A stretch of 39,721 bases of DNA from Deltaproteobacteria bacterium (GTDB taxonomy: Bacteria > UBA10199 > GCA-002796325 > 1-14-0-20-49-13). The translations under genes were made by a program, and so were the position numbers. Of the stretch, positions 18,638 to 39,721 are shown piece after piece. Positions within the stretch are counted from its first letter, which is position 1; every line of letters begins with the position of its first letter. The notes beneath the pieces are model-generated. The model was not told the origin of the DNA, searched no databases, and saw nothing but the letters and a program-made list of their open reading frames with translations. The stretch is from NCBI GenBank assembly GCA_016180865.1, contig JACPAJ010000013.1, positions 1-39,721 on the forward strand, in the 5' to 3' direction.

Positions 18638-19095
18638 AAGCTTTAAAGGGTTTTACCCTTATTGAAACGCTTTTAGTGATCGCTATTCTGGGAATTTTGT
18701 CTATAGCGCTCGTTACGCGCATATTTAATTATAAAAGATCCTATATTGAAGTAACGTCAAAGAAAGCCGCGAGCGATATTGAATATGCCAGAAGCCTTGC
18801 GATGATGAAACAGGGGACGACTTACGGGGTTTTTTTCGATGACGCCAATGATCGATATACGGTTTATGCAACAAGCACTGCAACTCCCGTTGCGGACCCC
18901 CAAACGAAGCAAAATCTTATTGAAACATTTTCAAGATGGCCCGGAGTTACGATTACCGGAGGCAATTTTACTGTTGAATTCAATCAATGGGGGTCTCCTA
19001 CGACAGGCGGCGGCGGAAGCGTGACGCTTACCGACGGCACAAACTCAAAGACGGTCACCATTACGGCAGGCACGGGGAAGGTGAGTGTGCAATAA
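18631..19095 (+). CDS. Minor pilin (FimU/GspH/MshC-like)
   Basis: KG|FTLIETLLV, DIEYARSLAM, VEFNQWGSP, TGKV. Confidence 0.9.
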   Translation: MVKALKGFTLIETLLVIAILGILSIALVTRIFNYKRSYIEVTSKKAASDIEYARSLAMMKQGTTYGVFFDDANDRYTVYATSTATPVADPQTKQNLIETFSRWPGVTITGGNFTVEFNQWGSPTTGGGGSVTLTDGTNSKTVTITAGTGKVSVQ

Positions 19096-19529
19096 TGTTC
19101 AAGCAACAAGCAACTAGCAAGGGTGTGACGTTGATCGAGGCAGTTCTAATGATCGGCATTGTCGGGGCCGGTCTCATTGGAATAGCTTATACAATGTTCG
19201 GCGGCCCCAAATCCGCTCTGATAGCCGACCAGACAGTTGTTGCAGCCCATTTGGCCCGTGAAAAGATGGAACAGATCCTTGCGGACAGGGCAAATAACGG
19301 TTACGCAACGACAATTGCCACAAGTTATTCCGATGGCGCATTAACCGGCAATTACAGCATTTATACGAGAAACGTTACGATTACGGAAGTTGATTCAGAT
19401 GCTGACGGCGGCAGCGACGATTTTCTGGATGCTTTAGCCGGTTCAGGATACGCCAGAGTAACTACGACTGTAACATGGAACAGCGGAAACAACACCGTAA
19501 AAGAGGAGATGCTGATTGCAAATTATTAG
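19095..19529 (+). CDS. Minor pilin (PilV/GspI/MshD-like)
   Basis: The true start is ATG 19095 (TAATG overlap). KG|VTLIEAV, AAHLAREKMEQI, RVTTTVTW. Confidence 0.88.
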   Translation: MFKQQATSKGVTLIEAVLMIGIVGAGLIGIAYTMFGGPKSALIADQTVVAAHLAREKMEQILADRANNGYATTIATSYSDGALTGNYSIYTRNVTITEVDSDADGGSDDFLDALAGSGYARVTTTVTWNSGNNTVKEEMLIANY

Positions 19530-20034
19530 AGCCCATTTGCGGCGCGGCGGATTTACGCTTGTAGAACTTGTTTTGTCTATTGCTATCATTGCGATTCTTG
19601 CTGCAAGCGTCGGGCCGATTTTAACGACAAGTTTCAGAGGCTATGATCTTGTTGCAAAAAGACGGATAGCGCTGGCCCAAATCAGAATAGCGCTGGACAG
19701 AATGTGCGGTGAAATTGCTCTTATTCCGGACACAGCCAATATTGTCACATTTACCTCTACAAATTTCACATTTAATATTCCGAGCGAAAGCAATGTTGCA
19801 TATACAACAAGCGGAAGCACTCTTACACGTAGCGGCGTGAATCTGGCCGATAATGTAACTTCGCTCGCATTTACTTATCTTGATTCGGCCGGCAATTCAA
19901 CGGCGACAAAGGCAAATATAAAAAGGATAAAAGTTGAAGCGTCGGTTACAGCAGGTGCCGGCATGGGAACGTTAAATATAAGGGATCAAGTTTTTCCGCG
20001 GAGGTTTGCAAGCGCTTATGCAGGGTATCAGTAA
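19516..20034 (+). CDS. Minor pilin (PilW/GspJ/MshO-like)
   Basis: GG|FTLVELVLSIAII, ALDRMCGEI, LADNVTSLAFTYLD. Confidence 0.9.
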   Translation: MQIIRAHLRRGGFTLVELVLSIAIIAILAASVGPILTTSFRGYDLVAKRRIALAQIRIALDRMCGEIALIPDTANIVTFTSTNFTFNIPSESNVAYTTSGSTLTRSGVNLADNVTSLAFTYLDSAGNSTATKANIKRIKVEASVTAGAGMGTLNIRDQVFPRRFASAYAGYQ

Positions 20035-22270: not shown

Positions 22271-22285
22271 GAGGCCGAAAGATAG

Positions 22286-22314
22286 TTGAATTTATTGAGC
22301 ATGAATGCTATCAT
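22286..22314 (+). promoter_or_regulatory. Putative sigma-70 promoter with extended -10
   Basis: TTGAAT-N17-TATCAT with TG at -15/-14, 9 nt before ATG 22324. Confidence 0.55.
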
Positions 22315-22323
22315 TAACGACAT

Positions 22324-23868
22324 ATGAAACAACGAGTGAAACGCAAGCCGGCATCAGAAAAACTTAAAAAACCGATCGCCAAGGATAAAGATATAACCGT
22401 CCTTAATCAGACTTTATTGAATACCATCCCCTTTCCAATGGATATTGTGGACGATACAGGAACGATTCTTTACATGAGCGAATTAATGCAAAAAATGGCT
22501 GGTAAAAATGGCGCCGGCAAAAAATGCTGGCTGCTTTACAGGGATGATAAAGTCAGGTGTCCCGCATGCCCTCTTGAAACGGGAATAACCGTCGGAGAAA
22601 CGAAAACCATAGATGTGGGAAGCTGCTTTGGAGGAAAGCAGATGGAGGTTACTCACACCGGGATGATCTATAAAAGCAAAAAAGTGATTCTTGAAATTTT
22701 TTACGATATAACCGAAAGAAAAAAAGCCGATGAAGTTTTGAAAAATATCAGGGAAAAACTTGAAGAGAAAAATTTTGAATTAAAGCGGCTAAATGAAGTC
22801 AAATCCGAATTTGTGGCGACAGTTTCGCATGAGCTCAGAACTCCTTTGGCTTCGATCAAAGAAGCCATTTCGCTTATTTTGGACGGAGTGTCAGGGGAAA
22901 CTAACGAAAAACAGCGCAACTTTTTAAGCATCGCCAACAGAAATATCGACCGGCTTACCGGTTTAATCAACAATCTTCTCGATATTTCTAAAATCGAAAC
23001 CGGCAAGCTCAAGCTTTATAAAACGAATTTTTTGATGATGGATGTTATAAAAGAGGTTATCGATTCATTCAAACATCTTGCAGAGAATAAGAGAATTAAC
23101 CTGCGGCTGATCGAGAAAACCGACCTTCCGTCTGTATATGCGGACAAAGACAAGATAACGCAGATAATTATCAATCTCCTTTCAAATGCTTTAAAATTCA
23201 CGCCTGAAGGCGGTTTTGTGGAAGTTTCGACAGATTATACAAAATCGGATAAGGAATTCGTTGAAGTTGAAGTTAAAGATTCCGGAATGGGCATCGCCGA
23301 AGATGACATGCCAAAGCTTTTCCATAAATTCCAGCAGATCGACGGATCGATAACCCGCAAAATCGGCGGAACGGGCCTGGGGCTGGCCATCTCAAGGGAA
23401 ATTATCGAAATGCACGAAGGCAGAATCTGGGCGGCGTCTGAACTGGGCAAGGGGAGCCGCTTTGGGTTCATTCTGCCGGTTATTCCAATGGGGAAGATTA
23501 AAGTCGATAAAAAGAGGATTTTGATAATTGACGATGACCCCGATCTTTGCGAAACTCTAAAAACAAGGCTTGAAGCCAATGAATTTATCGTATTTACGGC
23601 TTTAAACGGGATGGACGGAATTGAACTGGCAAAGAAAAACAGGCCGAATCTTATTATTTTGGATTTAATGATGCCGGAAATGGATGGTTTTCAAGTTTGC
23701 CAGTCATTAATGAAAGACAGCCAGACATCTTCCATCCCCGTGGTGGTGTTGACTGTCCTTGATCAGGAGGAGGCAATACGAAAAGCCTTGTGTAAAGGCG
23801 CGGTAGGATATATGATTAAGCCATACGATTCCGAATCGCTGCTGGAAACAGTCAGGGAGTTTTTATGA
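22324..23868 (+). CDS. Hybrid histidine kinase (Cys-containing PAS, HisKA, HATPase, receiver)
   Basis: GKKCW...CPACP PAS motif, VSHELRTPL, NLLSNALKFT, GGTGLGL, ILIIDDD...DLMMPEMDG. Confidence 0.95.
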   Translation: MKQRVKRKPASEKLKKPIAKDKDITVLNQTLLNTIPFPMDIVDDTGTILYMSELMQKMAGKNGAGKKCWLLYRDDKVRCPACPLETGITVGETKTIDVGSCFGGKQMEVTHTGMIYKSKKVILEIFYDITERKKADEVLKNIREKLEEKNFELKRLNEVKSEFVATVSHELRTPLASIKEAISLILDGVSGETNEKQRNFLSIANRNIDRLTGLINNLLDISKIETGKLKLYKTNFLMMDVIKEVIDSFKHLAENKRINLRLIEKTDLPSVYADKDKITQIIINLLSNALKFTPEGGFVEVSTDYTKSDKEFVEVEVKDSGMGIAEDDMPKLFHKFQQIDGSITRKIGGTGLGLAISREIIEMHEGRIWAASELGKGSRFGFILPVIPMGKIKVDKKRILIIDDDPDLCETLKTRLEANEFIVFTALNGMDGIELAKKNRPNLIILDLMMPEMDGFQVCQSLMKDSQTSSIPVVVLTVLDQEEAIRKALCKGAVGYMIKPYDSESLLETVREFL

Positions 23869-24230
23869 CAAAAAAAATATTGATTGTGGATGACGAGAAG
23901 GATCTGGTTGAAACCCTTTCCTTCAGGCTGGAAGCCGCCGGTTATGCTATTATCACCGCTTTTGACGGGAAAGAAGGTCTGGAAAAAGCGCGTTCCGAAA
24001 AGCCGGATATCGTGCTTTTGGACATCATGATGCCCAAGATGGATGGCTATCAGGTTTGCAGGATGTTGAAATTCGATGACGAATATAAGCATATGCCGAT
24101 AATCATGCTTACCGCGCGGGGGCAGGAGCAGGATAAAAAGACGGGAGAAAACGTCGGAGCGGACGATTACGTCACAAAACCTTTTGACAGCGGGGACCTT
24201 CTCACGCGCATTAAAAAGCTTTTAAAATGA
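23865..24230 (+). CDS. Single-domain response regulator
   Basis: ILIVDDE, DIMMPKMDG, MLTA, DYVTKPF. Confidence 0.95.
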   Translation: MTKKILIVDDEKDLVETLSFRLEAAGYAIITAFDGKEGLEKARSEKPDIVLLDIMMPKMDGYQVCRMLKFDDEYKHMPIIMLTARGQEQDKKTGENVGADDYVTKPFDSGDLLTRIKKLLK

Positions 24231-24613
24231 AGTACGAAATTTTAATAGCGGACGATGATCGCGACTTTGTCACGGTTCTGAAGGAGCGTCTTGAATCAAG
24301 CGGCTTTATAACAGATTGCGCCTACGAAGGCGTCAGGACTATCGAGCTGGCCCATAAGAAAAAACCCGATTTGATTTTGCTGGACTGGAAAATGCCCGCA
24401 GGCGGCGCATCTACGGTTTTACAGTATTTGAAGGAGAAGCCGGAAACGAAAAACATCCCCGTTATTGTTATTACCGGAGTCGCCGATAATTTTTTGGAGT
24501 CTAAAGCGGCGTCATTGGGGGCCAAATATTTTATACGAAAACCGTACGATCCTCATCTGCTCATCGACACAATAAACGAAATCCTGGCTTTAAGAACCGA
24601 AAAATCAAAATAG
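24227..24613 (+). CDS. Single-domain response regulator
   Basis: ILIADDD, LDWKMPAG, VITG, FIRKPY. Confidence 0.93.
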   Translation: MKYEILIADDDRDFVTVLKERLESSGFITDCAYEGVRTIELAHKKKPDLILLDWKMPAGGASTVLQYLKEKPETKNIPVIVITGVADNFLESKAASLGAKYFIRKPYDPHLLIDTINEILALRTEKSK

Positions 24614-24659
24614 ATATTTTTCTTTAACATTTCATAAAGTTATGCTACTTTCATGACTT

Positions 24660-25535
24660 ATGTATCTTGAGTATTTTAATTTTACTGATGAGCCGTTTAA
24701 AATAACGCCGGATTCAAAATATCTTTATCTGTCCCGCCAGCACGAGGAGGTTTTGCAAGCGCTCCTTTACGGCATTACACAGCGCAAAGGCTTTATGGCT
24801 GTAATCGGAGACATCGGAACCGGAAAGACAACCATAAGCCGCGCGCTTTTAAACAGGCTTGATAAATCGATCGATACATCCATTATTTTAAATCCGATGC
24901 TTTCCGTTCAGGAGCTGCTGGAGGCCATTAACGACGATTTTGGAAATGCGGCAGCTACGAGAGATACGGTTAAGGGGCAGATAGATGCGCTGAATGAATT
25001 CATGCTGCGCCGCCTACGCTTCAATAAAAATGCGATTGTGATGATAGATGAAGCGCAGCATTTGAGCGTTGAATCCATGGAGATGCTGAGGCTGCTGTCA
25101 AATCTGGAGACCGAAGATAAAAAGCTGATGCAGATAATTTTTCTGGGGCAGAAAGAGCTTGAAACAAAATTGAAATCGCCGGAACTCCGCCAGCTCGACC
25201 AGAGAATAGGCATTCGCTATTTTCTGGGGCCGCTGAATTACACCGAGACGTGCAATTATATTGTTCACAGGATAACAATGGCCGGAGGCGGGGGCGGCAG
25301 CATTCAGCTTGAAGAGCGGGGGTTGAGGAAAATTTTTGAATATTCAAAGGGAGTGCCGCGCAGGGTCAATATGATTTGCGACAGAAGCCTGCTGGAAGCT
25401 TTTGCACAGAGAAGCAAGCTTGTTACCAGCGGGATTGTAAAAGCCGCTATTCGCGACATTGAAGGCCTCTCAAACCCGAGCGGAGTCGCATTTTCCGGCA
25501 GAAAAAAAGTTTGGGAATTCTGGAAGTGGTTTTAA
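24660..25535 (+). CDS. ExeA/GspA/MshM-family AAA ATPase
   Basis: MYLEYFNFTDEPFKITPD, GDIGTGKT, IDEAQ, LRLLSNLET, GVPRRVNMICD. Confidence 0.93.
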   Translation: MYLEYFNFTDEPFKITPDSKYLYLSRQHEEVLQALLYGITQRKGFMAVIGDIGTGKTTISRALLNRLDKSIDTSIILNPMLSVQELLEAINDDFGNAAATRDTVKGQIDALNEFMLRRLRFNKNAIVMIDEAQHLSVESMEMLRLLSNLETEDKKLMQIIFLGQKELETKLKSPELRQLDQRIGIRYFLGPLNYTETCNYIVHRITMAGGGGGSIQLEERGLRKIFEYSKGVPRRVNMICDRSLLEAFAQRSKLVTSGIVKAAIRDIEGLSNPSGVAFSGRKKVWEFWKWF

Positions 25536-25550
25536 AAATCAGGGGGATAA

Positions 25551-26336
25551 ATGTCCGTAATTTTAAAAGCTCTCAAAAGCCAGGAGAGAGAATCAAATAA
25601 TATCAGCAAGTCGCCGTTAATTATTCCAGAAGGCGAAGGTTTTTTTAAAGGCAGGCAGTCGATGGTTAAAAAAGATCCTTACGTCTCCAAAAAAAGGATT
25701 TATGTTTTAAGCGTTCTTTTTGCCGCTGCGGTTATTTTTGCAGTTGCTCTTCAGTGGGTGAAAAACAGGCCGGCCGAGCCTGAGTCTGCAAAACAACCGG
25801 CTGTTGCTCATGCGGTTGAAAATTCAAATCAAACCGCACTGGCTGTTCAAGCGGAAACAAGCGAGGCTGTTCCGGCAGACATAGTTGAACGGGCAAATGC
25901 AGCTTTTGCCGGCGGAGATTATGAAACCGCAGTGAAATTGTTTAAGGAAGCAATCGCGAAAGATCAAAACAATGCAATGCTTCATAATAATTTAGGGCTT
26001 ATATTTGTAAAAAAAGAGCTCTATTCCAGCGCGGAAGATGAGTATAAAAAAGCGCTTGAATCTGACGATAAGTGCGCGGAATGTTTTAATAATTTTGGAT
26101 ATCTGAAATCGATATTGGGAGAATCGTTTGAGGCGAGGAAATATTTTGAAAAGGCATCGGTGTTATTAGCATCGTACGCAGATCCGTATTTTAACCTGGC
26201 GGTCTTATCCGAAAAAGAAGGGGACATAGGCAATGCCGTTAAATATTACAGGCAGTTCATCGAGCTCTATCCGAATAAAAGCGATACGCTCTATTCTAAA
26301 GTCAACAAACGGGTAATTGAACTTGCCGGGAAATAG
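25551..26336 (+). CDS. Membrane-anchored TPR protein (ExeB/MshN-like)
   Basis: MSVILKALK N-terminus typical of ExeB/MshN, a TM segment and TPR motifs (HNNLG, FNNFG, YFNLA). Confidence 0.85.
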   Translation: MSVILKALKSQERESNNISKSPLIIPEGEGFFKGRQSMVKKDPYVSKKRIYVLSVLFAAAVIFAVALQWVKNRPAEPESAKQPAVAHAVENSNQTALAVQAETSEAVPADIVERANAAFAGGDYETAVKLFKEAIAKDQNNAMLHNNLGLIFVKKELYSSAEDEYKKALESDDKCAECFNNFGYLKSILGESFEARKYFEKASVLLASYADPYFNLAVLSEKEGDIGNAVKYYRQFIELYPNKSDTLYSKVNKRVIELAGK

Positions 26337-26338
26337 TT

Positions 26339-27346
26339 ATGGCTAAGATTTCATTAGGGGTCGACATAGGCTCTGAAGATATAAAAGTAGTATGCCTGGA
26401 AAAAAATGAAGAAAGTTATAAGCTGAATTCTTACGGCCATTTCAGGTTCGGCGGCGACGAAGAGGCTTTAAAAAGATTTGTGCAGGAAGCAAAGCTTCCG
26501 AAGGGCGATGTAAGAATAAATATTGAAGACAGCTCTTTAAAAATAAGAAGGCTTGATCTGCCGACCATGACCGAAGAGGAATTTAATGAGGCCGTTCGCT
26601 GGGGGATGAAGGATATTGTTGAAGGGGATATTAACGATTTTATCTTTCGCTGTTCAAAAATAGATCCGACGGATCTGAGCCTTGAAAATAAAATTCCGAT
26701 GCTGGTTTTTGCAATCAAGGCCGATACGGTGTCTGGCAGGCGCAGTTTTGCTAAGCGCATAGGCTTTAAAATCCCAAGCATTATAGAACCCAATGCAGGT
26801 GCTCTGGCATGTCTTTTTGATGCGCTGAAGGGAAAAGAAAGAGACTCTTCAAAAGCGGTTGTTGATTTAGGGAGGGTCTTTTCGCCTTTTATCGTTATCG
26901 GGAAAAAAGGGCTGGTTTTTTCCAGGCCGATGAACGGCTGCAGCGAAATTAATTTTATCGGCCAGCTTGCGCGGGACTTAGGCATAGGCTCAAAAGAGGC
27001 GGAAGATTTAAAGCAAAAATTTTTTGGAGGAGGAAAAATAAGCGGAGAAATTGAGACAAGGCTTAAAAATTCCGTGACGCAGTTTTATTCAAAAATGGCC
27101 GTTGAAATTCAGCGGTCTATTGACGGGTATAATCTTGTTTTCGGCAGGCAGAAAGTCGATGAAATTTTTCTTTGCGGAAACGGCGCGTACAGCAAAGGGC
27201 TGATTGGTTATCTTAATCAGACTCTTGGCGTTAAAACGGGCATATTGGATCCGTTCGAATTTGCCGATACGCGAGAATTCAGCCCTGGGCCGTTTGACGG
27301 CAAACGGGCTCTTTTTGCGGTTGCTTGCGGGCTTGCGGTTGATTGA
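26339..27346 (+). CDS. pilM: Type IV pilus assembly protein PilM
   Basis: LGVDIGSEDIKVV, VVDLG, EIQRSIDGY, IFLCGNGA, AVACGLA. Confidence 0.92.
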   Translation: MAKISLGVDIGSEDIKVVCLEKNEESYKLNSYGHFRFGGDEEALKRFVQEAKLPKGDVRINIEDSSLKIRRLDLPTMTEEEFNEAVRWGMKDIVEGDINDFIFRCSKIDPTDLSLENKIPMLVFAIKADTVSGRRSFAKRIGFKIPSIIEPNAGALACLFDALKGKERDSSKAVVDLGRVFSPFIVIGKKGLVFSRPMNGCSEINFIGQLARDLGIGSKEAEDLKQKFFGGGKISGEIETRLKNSVTQFYSKMAVEIQRSIDGYNLVFGRQKVDEIFLCGNGAYSKGLIGYLNQTLGVKTGILDPFEFADTREFSPGPFDGKRALFAVACGLAVD

Positions 27347-27361
27347 TTCGGCGCAAATTTT

Positions 27362-27898
27362 ATGCATATTAACTTTGAAACAAAGAGAAATGTGTTTGAA
27401 ATGATTCTGTTGAAGGGGCTTGAAGTTAATAGGCTGCTGATGGTTTTTTTCGTTATCGGTGTAATTATGCTGATGGTTTTATTCGGCCTGGTTCAAAAAT
27501 TCCGCCTCGATTATCTTGGGGCAAAAAGAATAAAAATGGAACATCAGGTGATAGAATTGCGCAAAGGAACGCCCCTTGAAAATCTTTCGATAGCAAGCAG
27601 CGCAGGCAAGGATCAGATATTTATAAATTATGAAGAAAAAATCATCTGGTCGGATATTCTTAAAGAACTTTCGGTTTACTGCCCTGAAAATGTGCAAGTT
27701 ACGCAGTTTAAAAGTACTAGTTCCGGCCGGACAGTTAACATAGGCGGCGACGCGCCGGATCAGGCGAGCGTTGCCGATTTTGTAAAAGCCCTTCAGGGAA
27801 GCGGAACTTTTAAGGACGTTAAACTTTTGTCCTCAACATCCGTTCAGGCTGAGGGCGGGAGCACGAGGATCGTTTACAGCATTGCAAGCACAATATGA
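27362..27898 (+). CDS. pilN: PilN-family protein
   Basis: HINF motif, TM, WSDILKELS...PENVQV, FVKALQGSGTFKDVKL; lies after pilM. Confidence 0.82.
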   Translation: MHINFETKRNVFEMILLKGLEVNRLLMVFFVIGVIMLMVLFGLVQKFRLDYLGAKRIKMEHQVIELRKGTPLENLSIASSAGKDQIFINYEEKIIWSDILKELSVYCPENVQVTQFKSTSSGRTVNIGGDAPDQASVADFVKALQGSGTFKDVKLLSSTSVQAEGGSTRIVYSIASTI

Positions 27899-28473
27899 AC
27901 ATTCATCTATCAAGCGTTGACTGGCAGCAGCGCCCCAACAGGCGCGAAAAAATCATATTTGCCTGTTCCGTTCTCATATTTTTTGCGGTTTTTTTAAAAT
28001 CATGCTGGTATCCGAGCAACAAAGCCATTGGGGTTGCAAAATCGGAATTGAAAGGCATTATCGAAGAAAAAATAGCCTTGGAAAGAAACGCCGGGTTGTT
28101 GCAGGACACAGATGCGAAAGGCAAGCTCTGGACGGGAACCCCCGATGAAAGGGTCGCCTATATTAAAATGGCCCAGAGAGTAAGCGAATCGCCGAATGTT
28201 GTTCTGATGAAAGAATTTTCCAACCCTGCGCTTTTGCGGGATGTGAAACTGTCAAACATAGATTTTCCGGACCAAAAAAATGAAAGCGGAATGATAAAGC
28301 AGCAGTGGAAAATCAATGTCAACGGAGCGTTTGTATCGGTAGGTAAATATATTGAGAGATTAGAAGGCTTGCCAATGCTTTTATTTATTGATAATATAAC
28401 GTTCAATTCGGCAAACGATCCGTTTGGGCGCGTTAATGCCGAGGTTGAAGGAACCGTTTATGGCTGGAAATAA
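27895..28473 (+). CDS. pilO: PilO/GspM/MshJ-like protein
   Basis: RREK plus TM, coiled coil, INVNGAF...YIERLEGLP; gene order pilM-N-O. Confidence 0.75.
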   Translation: MNIHLSSVDWQQRPNRREKIIFACSVLIFFAVFLKSCWYPSNKAIGVAKSELKGIIEEKIALERNAGLLQDTDAKGKLWTGTPDERVAYIKMAQRVSESPNVVLMKEFSNPALLRDVKLSNIDFPDQKNESGMIKQQWKINVNGAFVSVGKYIERLEGLPMLLFIDNITFNSANDPFGRVNAEVEGTVYGWK

Positions 28474-28831
28474 TTTATTCAGATTATCGTTTGCGGTGCT
28501 TGTCCTTGCTTTTGCGCTTTCAGCTTCTGCAGAGCAGGGGAAAAAGGCGCTTTCAGGCCTGAATATAGAGGAATTTGAGCAGAAAAAGGAGAGGCCGACC
28601 GACTGGAGCAAGAATCCTTTTGTCATTCCAGCGGCGGATGTGGCGGTAAGCGAATTAAAACTTTCGGGAATCGTTTACAGTGAAAAGGAATCCGCAGCGA
28701 TTGTAAGCGATAATATCGTTAAAATCGGCGATAAAATAGGATCGAACGAAGTTGTTGCAATAGAAAAGATGAGAGTTGTTATAAGAAACGAAAACGGCCT
28801 TTTTGGAATTGCCCTTAGCGGAGGGAAATGA
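28460..28831 (+). CDS. PilP/MshK-like protein
   Basis: Signal peptide, KNPF, LKLSGIVYS...AIV...VKIGDKI; lies directly before the secretin. Confidence 0.75.
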   Translation: MAGNNLFRLSFAVLVLAFALSASAEQGKKALSGLNIEEFEQKKERPTDWSKNPFVIPAADVAVSELKLSGIVYSEKESAAIVSDNIVKIGDKIGSNEVVAIEKMRVVIRNENGLFGIALSGGK

Positions 28832-30198
28832 AGAAATTTATAATATTTTGCCTGCTGATGCTGTCGTGCGACCTCTGGTCTTATGAAAGGCTTTTCAGCG
28901 TCGAGTTTCGCGATGCCGATATCAAGAGCGTTCTAAGGCTCTTGGCAAAGATGGACGACCGGAATATCGTTGTTCCCGACAAAATTGAAGGAAAAGTAAC
29001 CGCCAGTTTTGAAAACATAGGATTATATGATGCGCTTGACGCTGTTTTAAAAACGCACGGCTATGGCGTGATTGAAGAAAATAATATCCTGCAGGTCCTT
29101 TCAAAGGACGAAATGCAGTCTTTAGGCGAAGATCTTCAGCAGGCGACATTCATTCTGCAGTATGCAAAAGCTTCGGACATCCTTCCGCAAATACAGGCGT
29201 TAATCACATCGCGCGGTTCCGCAGTTGCGGATGAAAGGACAAATACGATTTTCGTGAGAGATTCAAATGCCGCCGTTAACAACATAAGAGGGCTTGTCGC
29301 AAATATCGATAAAAAAGACAGCCAGGTGCTGATCGAAGCTAAAATAATCGAAGCGAGCCTGGATTTTATAAGAAGCCTTGGCGTGCAGTGGGGCGTCACG
29401 AAATCAGGCGGAAAAATCCAGACAGCGGGAGTTGAGGCCGTGGGAACCGCCGATAGCGGAAGAACTCTGATGCTGAATTCTCCGGCCGTTGGATTGAATT
29501 CCGGCGCGCCTTTGGGCGGTGTTGGAATGATTTTGGGGAGTTTCCGCGGGACGCTTACGGATGTGCAGCTGACAACCGCCGAACAGAAAGGGGATGTCAG
29601 CATTCTTTCAAGGCCGTCCGTTACGACAATCAATAATCATTCCGCATCTATCAGAAGCGGAGCCAAATTCTACGTCAAAACAAGCGGCAACGTAACGATC
29701 GGCGGAACAACAGGCGCTGCGGTTTCGACAGGCACAAATCTGCAGCAAATCGTTACGGGGATAGAATTGAAGGTGACGCCGCAGATTTCAATGGACGAAT
29801 TTATCAAGCTTGATATCGCAGCAACCGAATCCGAGGCGGATTTTACAAAAGCAATTGAGGGAATACCGGCAGTCCTTGATAATACAGCCACGACAACCGT
29901 TATGCTTAAAAACGGCGAAACAACAATTATCGGCGGACTTTTCCGCGTGCGCGATGCGAAAACCATTAAAGGGATTCCGGGACTCATGAAAATTCCGATT
30001 TTAGGAAATCTATTCAAGAGCAAGTCAAAAACTAAAGCCAGGAGCGAGCTGCTGATATTTATCACTCCTAAGATTATAGAATCTACTCTTTCAAGCCTTC
30101 CTCATTATGAGGAGCCGGACAGCATGTATTATACAGAGCCCATTTTAAATCCCGAACGAAAAGAGAAGAAGAAACGCAAATTCCGATTCAAGTATTAA
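28828..30198 (+). CDS. pilQ: Secretin (PilQ/MshL/GspD family)
   Basis: FRDADIKSVL, DERTNT, QVLIEAKIIE, TGIELKVTPQI, IPILGNLFK, ELLIFITPKI. Confidence 0.94.
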   Translation: MKKFIIFCLLMLSCDLWSYERLFSVEFRDADIKSVLRLLAKMDDRNIVVPDKIEGKVTASFENIGLYDALDAVLKTHGYGVIEENNILQVLSKDEMQSLGEDLQQATFILQYAKASDILPQIQALITSRGSAVADERTNTIFVRDSNAAVNNIRGLVANIDKKDSQVLIEAKIIEASLDFIRSLGVQWGVTKSGGKIQTAGVEAVGTADSGRTLMLNSPAVGLNSGAPLGGVGMILGSFRGTLTDVQLTTAEQKGDVSILSRPSVTTINNHSASIRSGAKFYVKTSGNVTIGGTTGAAVSTGTNLQQIVTGIELKVTPQISMDEFIKLDIAATESEADFTKAIEGIPAVLDNTATTTVMLKNGETTIIGGLFRVRDAKTIKGIPGLMKIPILGNLFKSKSKTKARSELLIFITPKIIESTLSSLPHYEEPDSMYYTEPILNPERKEKKKRKFRFKY

Positions 30199-33577: not shown

Positions 33578-33648
33578 AATCTGCATTGACATTGATTTAA
33601 AAAATCTGTATTTAATGGCCATTCTGAATTAACAAGGAGGAGGGGATA

Positions 33649-33801
33649 ATGGATAAGAAGAAAAAAGATGAACTGGCCAAAACGTGCTGCGGGCCTAAAG
33701 TAACGACGGAAAAGTCGTCTAAAAAGCAAAAGTGGGAAAAACCGTCGCTTGAAAATGTGTCGACCCGTGTTATGGCACAGCCGTATATCAGATTTACATG
33801 A
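33649..33801 (+). CDS. Putative RiPP precursor peptide (50 aa, PqqA-like WxKP motif); not in the ORF track
   Basis: Strong RBS AAGGAGGAGGGG. Translation MDKKKKDELAKTCCGPKVTTEKSSKKQKWEKPSLENVSTRVMAQPYIRFT*. Lies directly upstream of PqqD-family and radical SAM genes. Confidence 0.88.
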   Translation: MDKKKKDELAKTCCGPKVTTEKSSKKQKWEKPSLENVSTRVMAQPYIRFT

Positions 33802-33827
33802 GTCGCAATTAGTTGATTTTATTAAAT

Positions 33828-33860
33828 AAAAGGAGCAGCCAATTTAAGCTGCTCCTTTTT
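33828..33860 (+). terminator. Stem-loop or intrinsic terminator between the precursor and the maturase genes
   Basis: AAAAGGAGCAGC-CAATTTAA-GCTGCTCCTTTTT: perfect 12-bp inverted repeat with a T tract. Confidence 0.85.
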
Positions 33861-33882
33861 AATTATCTACCGGAGGTTATAT

Positions 33883-34131
33883 ATGAAATTTGCAAATTCA
33901 GTAAAGGTGCGCAGTGAAAAATTTGGATCGGTTGTTTTTGAAACCCTTCGGGAAAGAGTTTTTGTCTCAAATACGACCGGAGCGGATGTTTTAAAACTTA
34001 TAGAAGACGGCAAAACAAAAGAAGAGATAATTGCCGATTTGTCCGCTAAATACGATGGCAACGAAAGCACAATAAAGAACGACATTGCCGAATATTTTGC
34101 ATGTCTTGAACAAAACAATCTATTAGCTTAG
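33883..34131 (+). CDS. PqqD-family RiPP recognition element (MftB-like N-terminus)
   Basis: 82 aa; VKVRSEKFGSVVF...NTTGADVLKLIEDGKTKEEIIADLSAKYD...DIAEYFACL; GGAGGT RBS. Confidence 0.92.
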   Translation: MKFANSVKVRSEKFGSVVFETLRERVFVSNTTGADVLKLIEDGKTKEEIIADLSAKYDGNESTIKNDIAEYFACLEQNNLLA

Positions 34132-34148: not shown

Positions 34149-35141
34149 ATGGTTATCGAAAACGATCTTCGCATAATGGCGAAGCAGTACGTTCCGGAAG
34201 GCGGGAGCTTTGCCGATTTTGAGGCGCCTTTATTTATGGCGTGGCAGCTGAATCAGGAATGCAACATCGCATGCCTGCACTGCTGCGAAGAGGCGGGGCA
34301 TTTTATGCCGGACACTCTTAATTCAAACGAGGTTGCAAATTTTTGCGAGCAGATTACCACTATGAAAATTCCTTATGTCGCAATCTCCGGCGGAGAGCCG
34401 ATGCTGCACAAGGATTTTTATAAAATATGCGAATATTTCAGAAAGCATAATATAAGCCTGAAAGTTGAGACCAATGGGCTTCTTATCACAAAAGAAAAAG
34501 CCAAATGGTTTGGAAGCCTTGGATTCAGATCTGTTCAGGTGAGCGTTGACGGCGCAACCGCCGAGGCGCACGAAAAATTGAGAATTAAGGGCAAATGGCA
34601 GCCGACGATCGATGCGTGCAAATATCTTGTGGAAGCCGGAGTAACGACGGAAATAGTTTTTGTCCCCACAAAATTCAATATTCATGAAACCGGCCAGTTG
34701 ATCGATATGGCCCATAAAATGGGCATTTACGGCGTTTATACAGGCAAAACCATGAGAATTGGCCGTGCTGCCGAAAACTGGGACGCGCTTTGCCCGACGG
34801 ACGCTCAGTACGAAGAATTTTTTAAAGTGCTGAAGGAGAAACAGGCGTCTTATGAAGGCAGAATGAAGGTCTATTATTATCCTTATGATGTTATTGAGGA
34901 ACTGAAATACAGGCTGGAATATCCTTCGGCGAGTCTCCTTGTCATTCCCAACGGAAAAGTAAAGCTTATCGGGCCTATGCCGTTCTTGTGCGGAGATCTT
35001 CGGAAGCACACTTTGGCCGAAATCTGGGAGAGATATAAAAAATCGTGGAAGGACCCTAAAGTTACGGCGTTTGCCAAGAAAGTTATCGCGGATCCAACAA
35101 TGGTAGCGAAGGCCAATGACTGGGTTGAGCTATATAACTAA
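34149..35141 (+). CDS. Radical SAM enzyme (PqqE/MftC-like) with a degenerate SPASM/twitch-like tail
   Basis: CNIACLHC (CxxxCxxC), SGGEP, ETNG, VQVSVDGA...HEKLR; tail IPNGKV...GDLRKHTLAEIW. Confidence 0.93.
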   Translation: MVIENDLRIMAKQYVPEGGSFADFEAPLFMAWQLNQECNIACLHCCEEAGHFMPDTLNSNEVANFCEQITTMKIPYVAISGGEPMLHKDFYKICEYFRKHNISLKVETNGLLITKEKAKWFGSLGFRSVQVSVDGATAEAHEKLRIKGKWQPTIDACKYLVEAGVTTEIVFVPTKFNIHETGQLIDMAHKMGIYGVYTGKTMRIGRAAENWDALCPTDAQYEEFFKVLKEKQASYEGRMKVYYYPYDVIEELKYRLEYPSASLLVIPNGKVKLIGPMPFLCGDLRKHTLAEIWERYKKSWKDPKVTAFAKKVIADPTMVAKANDWVELYN

Positions 35142-36000
35142 ATTACTCACGTTTATCCGGTACCGCTTTCTCCTTTTTGCAGGGGTTTTGCCGTATTTTC
35201 TCGGCGCGTCTATTGCCTATCAAAAGCTCGAGCTCTTTAATTTGAAGTTTTTTTTGCTTGGCTTAAGCGGCCTTGTTTTTGTGCTGATAGGAGTGGAAGC
35301 GTTCAATGAATATTTTGACTGGATCCTCGGCACCGACAGAATTTTTCAGATCGATCAAAAGCCTATCGGAAAGAAAAAATTTTATATCGGCATCGCGGCT
35401 TTTTTTGCAGCTCTCTTGTTTGCTGTTTATCTGACTTTAATAATCGGAAAGGGGATTGCGATATTTGCGCTTATTGGTTTTGCGGCGGCGGCATCTTATC
35501 TTGGACCGCCGGTCAAATTTGCGTATCGCGGTCTTGGGGAGGCGGTTATTGCTCTTGCTTATGGGCCGGCAATGGTTTTGGGAAGCTATTATTTGCAGAC
35601 TAAAACGGTGGATACGGAGCCGCTTTTAATTTCCATCCTTCCGGCGATATTATTATATTCAATAGCAATCATTAATGAAGTGCCCGATTTTTTGCAGGAC
35701 AGCCTTGTCGGCAAGCAAAATATCTGCGTAAGGCTGGGCAGGATCGGAGCGGTAAGGCTTTATGCCGGATTGCTGGGCCTATTTTTTGCAGCTGCTCTAG
35801 CTTTAATTGCTTTGCGTAAAATTCCGTTAACTGTGGGGGTGACTTTTTTTCTTATTCCTCTCGGTTTTTATAACTATCGCAAAGCGTGTAAATATTTTGA
35901 GGCCCCAGCCGATTTTTATCCGGTAATCCGCGGAACGCTTTTATTTTATATCATCGCAATGGTTATCTGCATTTTAAGCATTATTTTCCGGCCATTCTGA
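35116..36000 (+). CDS. UbiA-superfamily prenyltransferase, MenA-like
   Basis: FNEYFD...GTD, YLGPPVKFAYRGLGE, NEVPDFLQDSLVGKQNICVRLG, multiple TMs; overlaps the rSAM gene. Confidence 0.9.
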   Translation: MTGLSYITKLLTFIRYRFLLFAGVLPYFLGASIAYQKLELFNLKFFLLGLSGLVFVLIGVEAFNEYFDWILGTDRIFQIDQKPIGKKKFYIGIAAFFAALLFAVYLTLIIGKGIAIFALIGFAAAASYLGPPVKFAYRGLGEAVIALAYGPAMVLGSYYLQTKTVDTEPLLISILPAILLYSIAIINEVPDFLQDSLVGKQNICVRLGRIGAVRLYAGLLGLFFAAALALIALRKIPLTVGVTFFLIPLGFYNYRKACKYFEAPADFYPVIRGTLLFYIIAMVICILSIIFRPF

Positions 36001-36237: not shown

Positions 36238-36825
36238 ATGATTGATTTGAATAATGTTGTAACAAACTTGAGAAAAAATGGTTTCATTGCCGAGGTTTTT
36301 TCTGACCGGGCTTCTTTAGTGACCGCGATTCTCGAGAAGTTGGCCCATTCAAAAAGTATCAGCAGGGGAGGATCTGTCACATTAGATCAACTGGGTATTC
36401 CCGATGCCATTCGTGCCAAGGGATTGCCGTTCAGGGGAAATGCAACCTATGAGGATCGTCTCGCCGCTTTATCAGCGGATCATTTTTTGACAGGAACCAA
36501 TGCCATTACCGAAGAGGGATATTTGGTCAATGTGGATGGAACCGGAAGCAGGATTGCGGCGATTAGCTTTGGCCCCAAGCAGGTTTTCGTGGTCTGCGGC
36601 ACCAATAAAATCGTGAAAAACGTCAAGGCCGGGTTTGAACGGATAAGGGCCATTGCGGCACCCAAAACGAGCGCTTTGATAAAGAGAAACACCCCATGTC
36701 TATCTTTCGGACGGTGTATGAACTCAAACAGCCCGGACTGCATTTGCCGAAAACGGCATGTGACGCTTAGGGGTGAAGAAGGGAGAGTGAGCGTCTTTTT
36801 AATCAATGAACCGCTAGGGTTCTAA
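36238..36825 (+). CDS. LUD-domain (LutC/YkgG-like) protein
   Basis: GGSVTL, FLTGTNAITEEGYLVNVDGTGSR, FGPKQV...GTNKIV, PC...C...C cluster, INEPLGF. Confidence 0.9.
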   Translation: MIDLNNVVTNLRKNGFIAEVFSDRASLVTAILEKLAHSKSISRGGSVTLDQLGIPDAIRAKGLPFRGNATYEDRLAALSADHFLTGTNAITEEGYLVNVDGTGSRIAAISFGPKQVFVVCGTNKIVKNVKAGFERIRAIAAPKTSALIKRNTPCLSFGRCMNSNSPDCICRKRHVTLRGEEGRVSVFLINEPLGF

Positions 36826-36839: not shown

Positions 36840-37076
36840 GTGGAAAAGATAGAGGTCCTATTTAAGAATGAATCTTCCCGCCAATGCTCGGTGTATGTGG
36901 GGTCAGAAATAAGCGATCAGATTCCCAAAATTGCGGCGAACCTGAAAGCCAGCAAGGCTTTTGTGCTGTGTGATTCTAAGGTGCAAATGGTTGGACGAAT
37001 CATCGCCAAGAAGATACGTACGGTCTGCAATGTTGATCTCTATGTCATGGAAGCCACATCATATGTTAATACTTGA
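36840..37076 (+). pseudogene. aroB: Truncated N-terminus of a 3-dehydroquinate synthase/sugar-phosphate cyclase
   Basis: AAGGAG RBS. IEV...VYVG...KAFVLCDSKV...VMEA resembles the AroB N-terminus but stops after 78 aa, where E.xK is expected. Confidence 0.6.
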
Positions 37077-37104
37077 ATGCTATAATCTGACCCCCAATTT
37101 ACAC

Positions 37105-37143
37105 AAATAATACTTTGACAATTACAAAGTAATAATTTATAAT
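37105..37143 (+). promoter_or_regulatory. Consensus sigma-70 promoter overlapped by an operator-like palindrome
   Basis: TTGACA 37115-20, N17, TATAAT 37138-43. Inverted repeat TACTTTG 37111-17 / CAAAGTA 37125-31. Confidence 0.88.
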
Positions 37144-37149
37144 AGCCAT

Positions 37150-38373
37150 ATGTATAAAAAAAGGCTTATAGAACAAGCTGTTATAAAGGCATCAAAGACC
37201 TTTCCAGTGATTATGTTGACGGGTAGCCGCCAGGCGGGAAAGACCACACTTTTTCGAACTCTTGAACCTAATAGACGATTCATTACCTTAGATGATCTTC
37301 AATTAAGGCGTTATGCAAAAGAGGATCCAAAGGGTTTTATAAACGAGTTTAAACCTCCGGTATTCATTGACGAGTTTCAATATGCTCCGGACATTTTACC
37401 GTATATAAAAATTGCCGTTGATGAAAAGAGGACAAAAACGCAAAGCGCCGATGGTTATTTTTGGCTTTCGGGTTCGCAAAATTTCAAGATGATGGAGCAT
37501 GTTCAGGAGTCGCTTGCCGGACGCGTTGCAATTCTGCAACTATTAGGATTTTGCAGGCCGGAAATCGACGACAGTCGCATGGAATTCGAAAAGCCTCCCT
37601 ATTTCCTTGCTCCAATCGAATCGCGCTTCGAAACGAGCCGGAATGTGAACGACATCTTTGAATTTATAGTTCGCGGAGATAAACCGGAAATATGGACCAA
37701 ACCGGAAATAGACAGAAATGTTTTCTATTCATCCTACATACAAACTTATCTTGAAAGGGACGTTCGCAGTCAAATCGGTATCAGAGATATCGGCCTATTT
37801 GAAAAATTCATGCGCATGCTAGCTGCGCGCAGCGCCGACCTTTTGAATCTATCTGCGCTTGCAAGTGATGTCGGGGTCACTCAACCGACGGTTGCGCAGT
37901 GGCTTAATGTGTTGGAAAGAAGTTATCAGATATTTATTCTAAAGCCTTATTACCGCGGCCACGCCAAAAGATGCGTTAAGACGCCAAAGGCATATTTCTT
38001 GGATACGGGGCTATTGTCTTATTTTCTTAATATCAACGATGTCAAAACAGCCGTTTCACATCATTTTAACGGAAAACTTTTTGAAACATGGGTTGTCTCC
38101 GAAACCATAAAAAGTCTTTGGCATAGGGGCCTCGATGCGAATCTCTTTTTTTGGAGAACAAGGGATGGCGATGAAATTGACCTCTTATATGAAGGCACAG
38201 AGCTTTTGCCCTCTGAGATCAAGCTTGCAAATTCACCTTCAATAGGCGTCATATCTGCCGCAAAAAAAATAAAGGGGATTAATGTGGGAGCAAAAAGGAT
38301 AATCTGTACCACAGAAAAAAATGCATCGCTTGCAAGTGATACTACGTTGATTTCAGCATGGAACTTGTTTTAA
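37150..38373 (+). CDS. AAA_14 ATPase with DUF4143 domain
   Basis: GSRQAGKTTL, IDEFQYAP, LSGSQ, ESLAGR, YLERDV, KTPKAYFLDTGL, FWRTRDGDEIDL, EIK. Confidence 0.93.
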   Translation: MYKKRLIEQAVIKASKTFPVIMLTGSRQAGKTTLFRTLEPNRRFITLDDLQLRRYAKEDPKGFINEFKPPVFIDEFQYAPDILPYIKIAVDEKRTKTQSADGYFWLSGSQNFKMMEHVQESLAGRVAILQLLGFCRPEIDDSRMEFEKPPYFLAPIESRFETSRNVNDIFEFIVRGDKPEIWTKPEIDRNVFYSSYIQTYLERDVRSQIGIRDIGLFEKFMRMLAARSADLLNLSALASDVGVTQPTVAQWLNVLERSYQIFILKPYYRGHAKRCVKTPKAYFLDTGLLSYFLNINDVKTAVSHHFNGKLFETWVVSETIKSLWHRGLDANLFFWRTRDGDEIDLLYEGTELLPSEIKLANSPSIGVISAAKKIKGINVGAKRIICTTEKNASLASDTTLISAWNLF

Positions 38374-38677: not shown

Positions 38678-38901
38678 CGTTTTGCTCCGCTGGATAGACC
38701 AAGTTAGAACCTGTTTGTTTGATGGCTAGTTTTATCAATAGGGCCTTGTCTCAACCTTCCGAGTCCTACCTCGGAAAACCGGTTTAATAGCGTAACAAAT
38801 TGCATTGTATTTAGCCAACACAGCCCCCGTATAAAAGCCCAGTTATAAATAAGTTATTATTAGTTAGCCTTTTTTTATAACCCATGCTAACAATCCTAAA
38901 C

Positions 38902-39721
38902 ATGGATCCAAGAATAAACCCATACGCCCCCGGTGCAGGTACCATTCCACCCGAACTAGCAGGTCGTGACGATATCATTGAAAAAGCTTCAATAGCGCTG
39001 GATCGGTGCCGTAACGGTCTTGCATCGCGCGGCCTATGCTTGGTTGGACTGCGCGGGGTTGGAAAGACAGTTTTGCTGACACGCATTTCACAAGAAGCAG
39101 AAGCTAAAGGTTTTGCCGTGGTTTCCATCGAAACCCCTGAAAAACGATCCTTGCCTGCTCTGCTCATCCCCGCCCTGCGAACAGCCCTCATAAAACTGGA
39201 TGTAATGGTAGCGACCAAAGAGCTCGGTAAGCGCACCATGCGAGTATTGGGTGGTTTTGTTGGCGCAATGAAGGTCAAGTATAACGACATCGAATTCGGT
39301 TTAGATCTGGGTAGTGAAGATGGGGTCGCGGACTCAGGCGATCTAGAACACGATTTGATAGCATTGTTTACCGAGATCGGAAAAGTGGCCAAGACAAAAA
39401 ATACGGCGCTGGTCCTTTGCATCGACGAAATCCAATACATTGAAGAAGAGCAATTTGCGGCGCTCATCATGGCGCTACATAAATGCGCGCAAAATCAATT
39501 ACCAGTCATTTTAGTTGGCGCCGGTTTACCCCAACTTGTCGGACAGGCGGGGCGTGCCAAATCCTACGCTGAAAGACTTTTTGAATATCCTAACGTTGGA
39601 CCATTAAAAGAGACGGCTGCAATGGCCGCACTCGAAGTGCCAGCTGTCAAACATAACGTCCGGTTTGAGAGAAATGCACTGAACGAGATCATTTCCCAGA
39701 CAAAAGGCTGTCCGTATTTTT
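38902..39721 (+). CDS. AAA_16-like P-loop ATPase, 3'-truncated by the window edge; not in the ORF track
   Basis: MDPRINPYAPGAGTIPPELAGRDD..., Walker A GLRGVGKT, Walker B LCIDEIQ, VGAGLP, SYAERLF. The frame is open to the window end. Confidence 0.92.
   Translation, partial: MDPRINPYAPGAGTIPPELAGRDDIIEKASIALDRCRNGLASRGLCLVGLRGVGKTVLLTRISQEAEAKGFAVVSIETPEKRSLPALLIPALRTALIKLDVMVATKELGKRTMRVLGGFVGAMKVKYNDIEFGLDLGSEDGVADSGDLEHDLIALFTEIGKVAKTKNTALVLCIDEIQYIEEEQFAALIMALHKCAQNQLPVILVGAGLPQLVGQAGRAKSYAERLFEYPNVGPLKETAAMAALEVPAVKHNVRFERNALNEIISQTKGCPYF

Follow-up and report, generated by a model that had tools for sequence, protein, structure and literature searches.

A short conserved peptide gene heads an undescribed four-gene RiPP-type cassette that includes a MenA-like prenyltransferase

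Results

A precursor gene and its three partners

The subject of this analysis is a short open reading frame (ORF) on the + strand of a deltaproteobacterial contig, JACPAJ010000013.1, of which positions 1 to 39,721 were analyzed as a whole and are referred to below as the window. The ORF lies at 33649–33801, and its 50-residue product, as read from the sequence and the ORF list, is MDKKKKDELAKTCCGPKVTTEKSSKKQKWEKPSLENVSTRVMAQPYIRFT*. It is a real gene, and it encodes the precursor of an undescribed four-gene cassette of the kind that makes peptides synthesized ribosomally and modified after translation (RiPPs), the other three genes of which encode a PqqD-family protein, a radical S-adenosylmethionine (SAM) enzyme, and a MenA-like prenyltransferase of the UbiA superfamily. 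An earlier, sequence-only reading had singled out the span 33733–33801, which runs from W29 through the stop codon, and had proposed a RiPP-type precursor beside a RiPP recognition element (RRE) and a radical SAM enzyme; indeed, genes for a PqqD-family RRE and a radical SAM enzyme adjoin it. That reading overlooked the MenA-like prenyltransferase gene and, in related loci, the recurrent neighboring genes for a polyprenyl synthase and for the Na+-translocating NADH:quinone reductase (Na+-NQR, nqr), and with these the likely product changes. The features of the locus are as follows.

33634–33645, + strand: Shine–Dalgarno-like sequence AAGGAGGAGGGG, read from the sequence, with 3 nucleotides between its end and the precursor ATG
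33649–33801, + strand: precursor peptide gene, 50 codons plus stop, whose product consists of a variable, Lys-rich leader, a segment for docking, and a C-terminal core that is invariant
33733–33762, + strand: leader docking segment, W29-E-K-P-S-L-E-N-V-S38 (family consensus W-x-K-P-x-L-E-D-V-S)
33769–33798, + strand: core, V41-MAQPYIRFT50, the probable site of modification as judged by conservation
33829–33858, + strand: GC-rich hairpin followed by a T run, terminator- or attenuator-like, between the precursor gene and pqqD
33883–34131, + strand: PqqD-family peptide chaperone (RRE), 82 residues (PF05402, 46.8 bits against a cut-off of 23.4)
34149–35141, + strand: radical SAM peptide maturase, 330 residues, with C38-x3-C42-x2-C45 and an SkfB/PqqE-like fold (PF04055 only)
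35116–36000, + strand: MenA-like intramembrane prenyltransferase of the UbiA superfamily, 294 residues (PF01040, 66.6 bits against 34.2)

Folding of 33802–33882 gave the hairpin an 11-bp centroid stem and a minimum free energy of –20 kcal/mol (z = –2.97, with 0 of 200 shuffled sequences as stable); a scan for consensus promoters and terminators returned no match at the precursor and did not list the hairpin. A search for expression data listed no RNA run and four DNA runs, the latter all from a single groundwater study. The precursor belongs to no NCBIfam family at E ≤ 0.01, its 23-residue tail to no Pfam family at E ≤ 10, and the whole peptide has no PqqA match at E ≤ 10, its only Pfam match being a sub-threshold one to DUF7877 (13.4 bits against a 27-bit cut-off). 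Nor does any NCBIfam model reach its cut-off for any of the four cassette genes.

Conservation of the peptide core

A word-seeded search for homologues of the precursor returned 69 protein clusters, all with an identical C-terminus. Because such a search favors shared 5-mers, we turned to one anchored on the enzyme, in which an alignment of 23 radical SAM orthologues was searched against GTDB species genomes. It yielded 62 loci, all from metagenome-assembled genomes (MAGs), under more than 12 phylum labels: Planctomycetota, Omnitrophota, Elusimicrobia, Lentisphaerae, Acidobacteriota/Aminicenantia, Thermodesulfobacteriota, Nitrospirota, WOR-3, Bacillota, Calditrichaceae, Armatimonadota, Hydrogenedentota, and Brocadiaceae, together with two bins labeled as archaeal. 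As judged by phmmer over all ORFs of the loci, the same gene order recurs; the precursor is present in 50 of the 62 loci, and PqqD and UbiA are present in 55 and 59, respectively. Among the 12 loci in which no precursor was found, the contig ends no more than 585 nucleotides upstream in 11, and a 39-residue fragment is present in the other.

All 50 precursors recovered in this way, independently of their own sequence, end in D-V-S-x-x-[VI]-MAQPYIRFT. Counted from the C-terminus, the fixed positions are W at –22, P at –19, D-V-S at –15 to –13, [VI] at –10, and MAQPYIRFT at –9 to –1 (hence Y at –5 in 50 of 50); the window peptide itself has N at –15, where the 50 loci carry D. The leaders vary freely, and the N-terminal region is thus, as had been suggested, a variable extension. 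A profile search without word seeding, over 1.84 billion representative sequences, gave 98 matches at E ≤ 1e-3, and 78 of the 95 new ones end in MAQPYIRFT. The variants among the 95 are MAQPFIRFT (four), TAQPYIRFT (two), and IAQPYIRFT, VLRPYIRFT, MARPYIRFT, MAQPYIRFS, and MAQPCIRFT (one each), and the other six comprise frame-shifted, read-through, or more divergent sequences and unrelated ones. When the Phe form was searched for in metagenome contigs, five matches were obtained, of which one was due to chance and four were genuine loci with precursor, PqqD, and radical SAM genes; UbiA is present in the two whose contigs extend far enough (L073 and L076; L numbers denote loci). The alignment of homologous precursors that the sequence-only reading called for therefore leaves P-[Y/F]-I-R-F-[T/S] as the constant part. 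Met42 and Gln44 are not fixed, and, since natural variants carry T, I, or V at the former position and R at the latter, their side chains appear to be dispensable; the phenol hydroxyl group, likewise on sequence grounds, is not universal.

A CC pair in the leader, to which the sequence-only reading had drawn attention, is not a conserved feature: only 5 of 49 precursors have CC or CxC there (a 228-residue, over-extended ORF of L057 was excluded from the count). Such motifs lie about 13–30 residues before the W in the leaders of L009, L028, L029, L032, and L055 (Elusimicrobia-like and some Planctomycetota) and in the window peptide (C15-C16, 33691–33696). We also observed that two MAGs have two complete cassettes each, with different leaders and the same core (L008 and L011 in one, L014 and L019 in the other); in one of these MAGs a full nqr operon precedes one copy, and the other stands after nqrF and has different genes upstream.

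Likeness to PqqA and distance from pyrroloquinoline quinone synthesis

The sequence-only reading held that the C-terminus of the precursor is in exact register with PqqA, the precursor of pyrroloquinoline quinone (PQQ), with Met in place of the cross-linked Glu. PqqE cross-links a Glu and a Tyr of PqqA, the Glu standing four residues before the Tyr. For comparison we used two annotated plasmid pqqA genes, from Sulfitobacter (P0190) and Salipiger (P0191), whose operons were located by tblastn of the window radical SAM enzyme against plasmids. In both PqqA peptides, positions +2, +3, +13, and +17 from the W are occupied by K, P, Glu, and Tyr, respectively, and the window peptide has W29, K31 (+2), P32 (+3), M42 (+13), and Y46 (+17). 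The register, with Met at the Glu position, thus holds against both references, but the supposed equal tail of four residues after the Tyr does not, there being 14 and 10 residues after it in the two annotated PqqAs. A Glu four residues before the Tyr was never seen: the position is Met in the window peptide and in 50 of 50 orthologues, and T, I, or V in rare variants. Alignment of the precursor profile with P0190 by hhalign matched KWEKPSLENV with AWAKPIIREI and nothing else (10 columns, probability 1.7%, E = 0.029). Because of this low-scoring ten-residue match and the lack of any match to a PqqA model, the likeness in spacing is weak evidence of homology to PqqA.

The prediction that the product is not PQQ stands. 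The cross-linked Glu is missing, the PqqE model TIGR02109 scores 86.1 bits on the radical SAM enzyme against a cut-off of 381.35, and neither PqqB nor PqqC is encoded at the locus. The genome-wide search covered PqqC and not PqqB, and the PqqC model TIGR02111 had no match in the window's genome (84% complete), as compared with 383 bits in the Sulfitobacter plasmid used as a control. We therefore rejected identity with PqqA and PQQ, for which SPASM-type Cys residues are also wanting (see below).

The PqqD-family protein and predicted docking of the leader

The window PqqD protein falls below all NCBIfam equivalog cut-offs, including that of the PQQ-specific model TIGR03859 (28.4 against 46), and these scores mark it as a member of the PqqD family and not as an orthologue of the PQQ protein. 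The sequence-only reading had the RRE dock on W-x-K-P and had called for a model of the peptide with both proteins. We modeled the radical SAM enzyme, PqqD, and the precursor together, each with its own alignment. The complex scored 0.92 in each of three runs, as compared with 0.02 and 0.00 for controls with unrelated partners and 0.66, the best control, when the radical SAM enzyme was replaced; in a benchmark, 58 of 80 solved complexes attained the mark applied to the score, as did 2 of 110 mismatched pairs. Contacts agreed among runs to at least 95%, and the partner had a predicted local distance difference test (pLDDT) value of 60–61. The most confident of the predicted contacts join PqqD residues 25–33, 67, and 71 to peptide residues 31–38, and the modeled interface holds peptide residues 26–49, so that docking at W-x-K-P is indeed predicted. 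Contacts on the radical SAM enzyme include C46, 197–199, and 242–244, which are invariant in the alignment of 23 orthologues. Gene order, the leader and core pattern, and the modeled docking together place the cassette in the general class of RRE-dependent radical SAM RiPP systems.

A radical SAM enzyme without conserved auxiliary Cys residues

Searches with the window radical SAM enzyme returned 1456 homologues at E ≤ 1e-40; identity is at least 61% over the best 120 of them, with labels that range over Planctomycetota, Omnitrophota, Elusimicrobia, Nitrospirota, Thermodesulfobacteriota, Aminicenantia, Lentisphaeria, and Bacillota. Its best NCBIfam match is to MftC (TIGR03962, 137.6 bits against 265), over the N-terminal 210 residues only, and Pfam finds no SPASM domain in it. 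In the ESM Atlas its clusters are annotated only as "hypothetical protein." The structure model (pLDDT 86.3) matched SkfB best (6efn; Z = 27.6, root-mean-square deviation 2.5 Å over 282 aligned residues), followed by SuiB (Z = 24.4) and PqqE (6c8v; Z = 22.5); the SkfB alignment spans model residues 9–322 and so includes the C-terminal domain. A sequence search of the PDB likewise had SkfB (the best, E = 9.6e-25) and PqqE as its top matches.

Among 61 family members, the only invariant Cys residues are those of the CxxxCxxC triad; C46 is present in 55, C281 in 59, C157 in 48, and C215 in 45, and the enzymes of the Phe subfamily lack C46, C157, and C215. A conserved auxiliary cluster is therefore unlikely, to judge from the alignment. 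The missing set of auxiliary Cys residues sets the enzyme apart from PqqE and MftC, and a redox-neutral reaction appears as open as a cross-link.

In three loci (L016:3722–5706, L017:81–2075, and L053:511–2565) the cassette radical SAM gene is present before ubiA as a tandem pair of paralogues, both full-length, so that some lineages may carry out two modifications or use a heterodimer. Elsewhere in the window's genome, at G000:C18:20248–21874 (L002 and L003), stand two tandem radical SAM genes whose products are about 28% identical to the cassette enzyme.

A MenA-like prenyltransferase as part of the system

The UbiA gene is adjacent in 59 of the 62 loci, and in the window it begins within the last 26 nucleotides of the radical SAM gene, which it thus overlaps; for these reasons we count it as part of the system. 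Its best NCBIfam matches are to polyprenyltransferases acting on 1,4-dihydroxy-2-naphthoate (94 bits against 264), and all models, the NF0047xx MenA models included, remain below cut-off, as does menA TIGR00751 (64 bits against 102.15). The Asp-rich motifs N64-E-x-F-D68-x3-G-x-D74 and N187-E-x-P-D191-x3-D195-x3-G-K are at least 95% conserved in 50 cassette UbiA proteins. In a quick, unrooted tree, a single branch (Shimodaira–Hasegawa-like approximate likelihood ratio support of 100) separated these 50 from 14 MenA-like paralogues of the same genomes. The cassette UbiA is 29% identical to its genome's MenA-like paralogue, with which it shares the pattern of Asp-rich motifs. Equivalence of the cassette enzyme to MenA was considered and rejected, in view of its score below the menA cut-off and its separate clade.

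Neighbors of the cassette

To survey neighbors, the ORFs of the 62 loci were clustered and representatives were scanned against families. A long-chain polyprenyl diphosphate synthase gene (PF00348) adjoins the cassette in 14 of 62 loci; its product is closest to HepT component II (243 bits) and then to solanesyl and octaprenyl synthases. A gene for NqrF (Fer2, FAD, and NAD domains; TIGR01941, 281 bits against 295) also adjoins in 14 of 62, and at least three nqr genes are present in nine. Two arrangements can be distinguished. In one, nqrABCDEF is followed, sometimes after a gene for a 163-residue protein without assigned function, by the cassette and sometimes by the polyprenyl synthase gene (L014, L031, L036, L038, L045, and L048). 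In the other, the cassette stands between nqrABCDE and nqrF (L055 and L057), and nqrF likewise follows the cassette in L042, L049, and L059. The two arrangements correspond to two different clades of UbiA. A cassette that lies within a quinone reductase operon and is accompanied by a prenyl-chain synthase gene has, by analogy, the pattern expected of quinone biosynthesis genes. No gene for an exporter, leader protease, or immunity protein recurs among the neighbors of the 62 loci.

We note some further observations on these operons. A protein of about 150–160 residues, without a Pfam or NCBIfam family, is always encoded after nqrF, on either side of the cassette (L045:3907–4398, L031:3811–4272, L048:3723–4157, L055:8026–8478, and L057:8049–8504), and may be an accessory protein of NQR or a further component of the cassette. 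At L055:59–1447, and also in L014 and L038, the first gene of the operon is NqrA-like with an RnfC-type 4Fe-4S dicluster C-terminus, and this hybrid scores below the cut-off for canonical NqrA (198.8 against 450). Certain other candidates were dropped. Histidine kinase genes recur near cassettes, but their products share only the 22%–33% identity of a generic kinase core with the window kinases; the LUD-domain gene downstream in the window (36238–36825) has no counterpart in the 62 loci; and neighbor family f11, which lies opposite a kinase gene, is probably an antisense artefact.

Quinone pathways and respiratory genes in the host genomes

MqnA/D (PF02621) exceeds its cut-off in 5 of 50 cassette genomes, as compared with 273 of 401 sampled Planctomycetota, and MenB in none of 50 cassette genomes, as compared with 7 of 14 control genomes. 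NqrB/RnfD-type matches at E ≤ 1e-20 are present in 33 of 50 cassette genomes and were not found in the other 17. Within the Planctomycetota sample the radical SAM gene was found only in the two seed genomes, and a cross-table of presence and absence within that phylum was for this reason uninformative. In the window's own genome, none of MqnA/D, MqnC, MenB, MenD, and MenG exceeds its cut-off, and two strong NuoH genes and one CydA-like gene are present. A second UbiA gene of that genome has the look of an orphan MenA gene without a visible head-group pathway.

Other features of the window

Upstream, at 14400–30198, lies a complete set of genes like those for type IV pili or type II secretion, with PilB- and PilC-like genes, pseudopilins, PilM and PilN, two ORFs that by position and sequence would encode PilO- and PilP-like proteins, and a probable secretin gene at 28828–30198. 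After the set, and directly before the precursor gene, come genes for an AraC-type response regulator, a MEDS-domain kinase, and a PAS kinase. Downstream, at 36840–38373, a 78-residue ORF without a family match stands just before a DUF4143/AAA_14 ATPase gene (37150–38373), and an AAA_16 ATPase gene runs off the end of the window (38884–39720). The region downstream of the cassette may be a mobile or defense-type insertion.

Discussion

On balance, we read the cassette as a set of four co-transcribed genes that makes a peptide, or a fragment of one, that is modified by the radical SAM enzyme, polyprenylated, and retained in the membrane, where it acts with respiratory complexes. In this scheme, PqqD would take up the W-x-K-P-x-L-E-[DN]-V-S segment of the leader as one more beta-strand, in the manner of PqqA, and would present the core [VI]MAQP[YF]IRFT to an enzyme of the SkfB/PqqE fold that has no conserved Cys residues for an auxiliary Fe-S cluster. 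The enzyme would presumably modify the constant P-[Y/F]-I-R-F-T, candidate reactions being a C–C link from the aromatic residue to a side chain or a redox-neutral change such as epimerization. The membrane UbiA protein, with its diphosphate-binding motifs intact, would then add a long polyprenyl chain supplied, as gene order suggests, by the synthase that is often encoded next to it. Because the cassette has no gene for a protease or an exporter, the product would stay in the cytoplasmic membrane. Its partners there would be respiratory complexes, Na+-NQR foremost, and its role that of a redox or helper molecule anchored by lipid or, most boldly, that of a stand-in for quinone. That last version would amount to a third route to a carrier resembling a respiratory lipoquinone, in which a modified, polyprenylated peptide core serves Na+-NQR and complex I; we consider it rather unlikely. 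Its possible hosts are lineages (Planctomycetota, Omnitrophota, Elusimicrobia, and others) that are anaerobic, uncultured, and devoid of both known routes to menaquinone. The Phe subfamily weakens the carrier reading.

Several observations weigh against our interpretation. The whole case is genomic or modeled, and no chemistry has been observed. The Tyr-to-Phe subfamily keeps the cassette, UbiA included, which argues against phenol-dependent prenylation or a Tyr-derived quinone as a general mechanism. Solved complexes of RREs with leaders exist, and the success of the complex model may stem in part from likeness to them; a score of 0.66 was still obtained when an unrelated third chain was modeled with peptide and PqqD. 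Adjacency to nqr or polyprenyl synthase genes was seen in 23 of 62 loci, and not all cases are independent, since many of these loci come from related MAGs of Planctomycetota and Omnitrophota. NQR genes were not found in the window's genome, nor does its cassette have respiratory neighbors in the window. Five of the 50 cassette genomes do have MqnA/D, and the low frequency of MqnA/D is confounded by lineage, anaerobic lifestyle, and MAG incompleteness. The second UbiA gene of the window's genome (G000:C149:12365–13306; L070:1408–2349) passes the menA cut-off (118 bits against 102.15), and 13 of 50 cassette genomes have a MenA-like paralogue; some hosts may for this reason make a conventional prenylated naphthoquinone. 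Finally, in L033 (1–2627, Omnitrophota) the radical SAM gene is followed directly by the polyprenyl synthase gene, and none of precursor, PqqD, and UbiA was found, the 584 nucleotides upstream appearing to be non-coding.

The proposal of the sequence-only reading was that a PqqE-type C–C cross-link from Met42, Ala43, or Gln44 to Tyr46 yields a soluble cofactor other than PQQ, with the prenyltransferase unrelated. The W/K/P/+13/+17 register shared with the two PqqAs, the PqqD domain, the leader's predicted docking on it, and the presence of PqqE among the closest solved folds all speak for such a link. We nonetheless think it very unlikely, as the residues to be joined are replaced in nature alongside the same enzymes (Met42 by T, I, or V, Gln44 by R, Tyr46 by Phe), the enzyme has neither a SPASM match nor a conserved set of auxiliary Cys residues, and scores against PqqE and the PQQ-type PqqD are far below cut-off; moreover, UbiA, encoded in 59 of 62 loci by a gene that in the window overlaps the radical SAM gene, would have no part in it, and PqqC was not found in the genome. 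In another reading, a UbiA-type prenyltransferase happens to lipidate a RiPP natural product, which might be a signal, a surfactant, or an antibiotic, and the nqr and polyprenyl synthase neighbors are incidental. Precursor, RRE, radical SAM enzyme, and tailoring enzyme are the typical architecture of a RiPP cluster, prenylated peptides are known in other families, the window locus stands apart from respiratory genes, and the cassette is rare (2 of 401 Planctomycetota, both seed genomes), with the patchiness typical of accessory clusters. Yet a core invariant in 50 of 50 precursors under more than 12 phylum labels, together with a radical SAM enzyme that is at least 61% identical over its best 120 homologues, fits a cofactor that has a conserved partner and not diversifying secondary metabolites, and the lack of a recurrent exporter, leader protease, or immunity gene and the placement of the cassette inside nqr operons in two arrangements also make this explanation improbable.

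A prenylated peptide that carries no electrons but serves Na+-NQR and related membrane complexes as an assembly factor or a small subunit anchored by lipid would account for the position of the cassette between nqrE and nqrF (L055 and L057) or directly after or before nqrF, for the tolerance of Phe in place of Tyr, and for the invariance of the whole decapeptide, as expected of contact with a conserved protein surface. This, too, we judge to be quite unlikely: the window's genome has the cassette without NQR, 17 of 50 cassette genomes have no NqrB/RnfD match at the threshold given above, and the radical SAM enzyme would have no obvious role. Still further from the evidence, and exceedingly improbable in our estimation, is that the small ORF is a regulatory leader peptide, acting by stalling or by attenuation at the hairpin, while the radical SAM and UbiA enzymes make a prenylated molecule that is not a peptide. 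Arrest peptides typically have an invariant C-terminus, as the product of this ORF does, and downstream of the ORF lies a stable hairpin with a T run. However, a PqqD-family RRE is encoded in 55 of 62 loci, the enzyme has the fold of a peptide maturase, the predicted docking is confident, and in L020 the precursor gene lies on the opposite strand, downstream of ubiA, from where it cannot attenuate the operon.

If our interpretation is correct in its stronger form, that of a membrane redox carrier, it would explain how quinone-dependent complexes can operate in such hosts, most of whose genomes show neither the classical nor the futalosine pathway to menaquinone, and would define a new class of quinone-like molecule. 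If the product is instead a lipidated helper peptide, intramembrane polyprenylation would still be a new kind of RiPP tailoring.

We found no description of the cassette or of the core AQPYIRFT in the literature searched, whose scope left aside subscription journals and bioRxiv supplements, so that a prior description is possible; NCBIfam release 20 and Pfam likewise contain none. Passages of PMC9902471 mention PqqD-like genes only in general terms, and those of PMC13608877 and PMC9324843 do not concern the cassette.

Comparison with known systems

The cassette resembles the PQQ system in its short precursor, which contains W-x-K-P and is aromatic at +17 from the W, in its PqqD-family RRE, in an enzyme whose fold matches PqqE, and in a nearly invariant core, as expected of a cofactor precursor. 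It differs in having Met in place of Glu, in lacking a PqqA family match, SPASM Cys residues, and pqqB and pqqC at the locus, and in its obligatory UbiA gene, which has no counterpart in the two pqq clusters compared (Sulfitobacter and Salipiger). With mycofactocin, a peptide-derived redox cofactor, it shares a PqqD-like chaperone and a radical SAM enzyme acting on a conserved C-terminal core, MftC being the best NCBIfam match of the cassette enzyme. The core of mycofactocin ends in a C-terminal Tyr, whereas that of the cassette ends in IRFT; the radical SAM enzyme is below the MftC cut-off of 265, the PqqD protein is below that of MftB (TIGR03967, 17.8 bits against 33), auxiliary-cluster Cys residues are lacking, and where mycofactocin has its tailoring genes the cassette has a prenyltransferase. 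Identity with mycofactocin was rejected, since both equivalog models fell short.

SkfB, SuiB, and CteB are RRE-dependent radical SAM maturases, and the first two are the best structural matches to the cassette enzyme. Unlike theirs, its RRE is a separate protein and not an N-terminal domain, it lacks the Cys residues of a twitch or SPASM auxiliary cluster, and its core has no Cys from which a thioether might be made. In three-residue cyclophane (triceptide) RiPPs, an aromatic-x-x motif is cross-linked by a radical SAM/SPASM enzyme; the [Y/F]-I-R motif of the cassette would fit a link of this kind, and its enzyme lacks the SPASM Cys residues.

The fourth gene is most like MenA acting with a polyprenyl synthase, in its fold family, in both Asp-rich motifs, in its HepT-, solanesyl-, or octaprenyl-type neighbor, and in its linkage to quinone reductase, but its partners are a ribosomal peptide, an RRE, and a radical SAM enzyme and not Men or Mqn enzymes, which mostly were not found. 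Few cofactors made from ribosomal peptides are known (PQQ and mycofactocin), and to our knowledge none is anchored to lipid by a UbiA-type enzyme. What is novel in the cassette, whose peptide shows cofactor-like conservation, is its obligatory MenA-like prenyltransferase, together with the recurrent links to polyprenyl synthesis and Na+-NQR.

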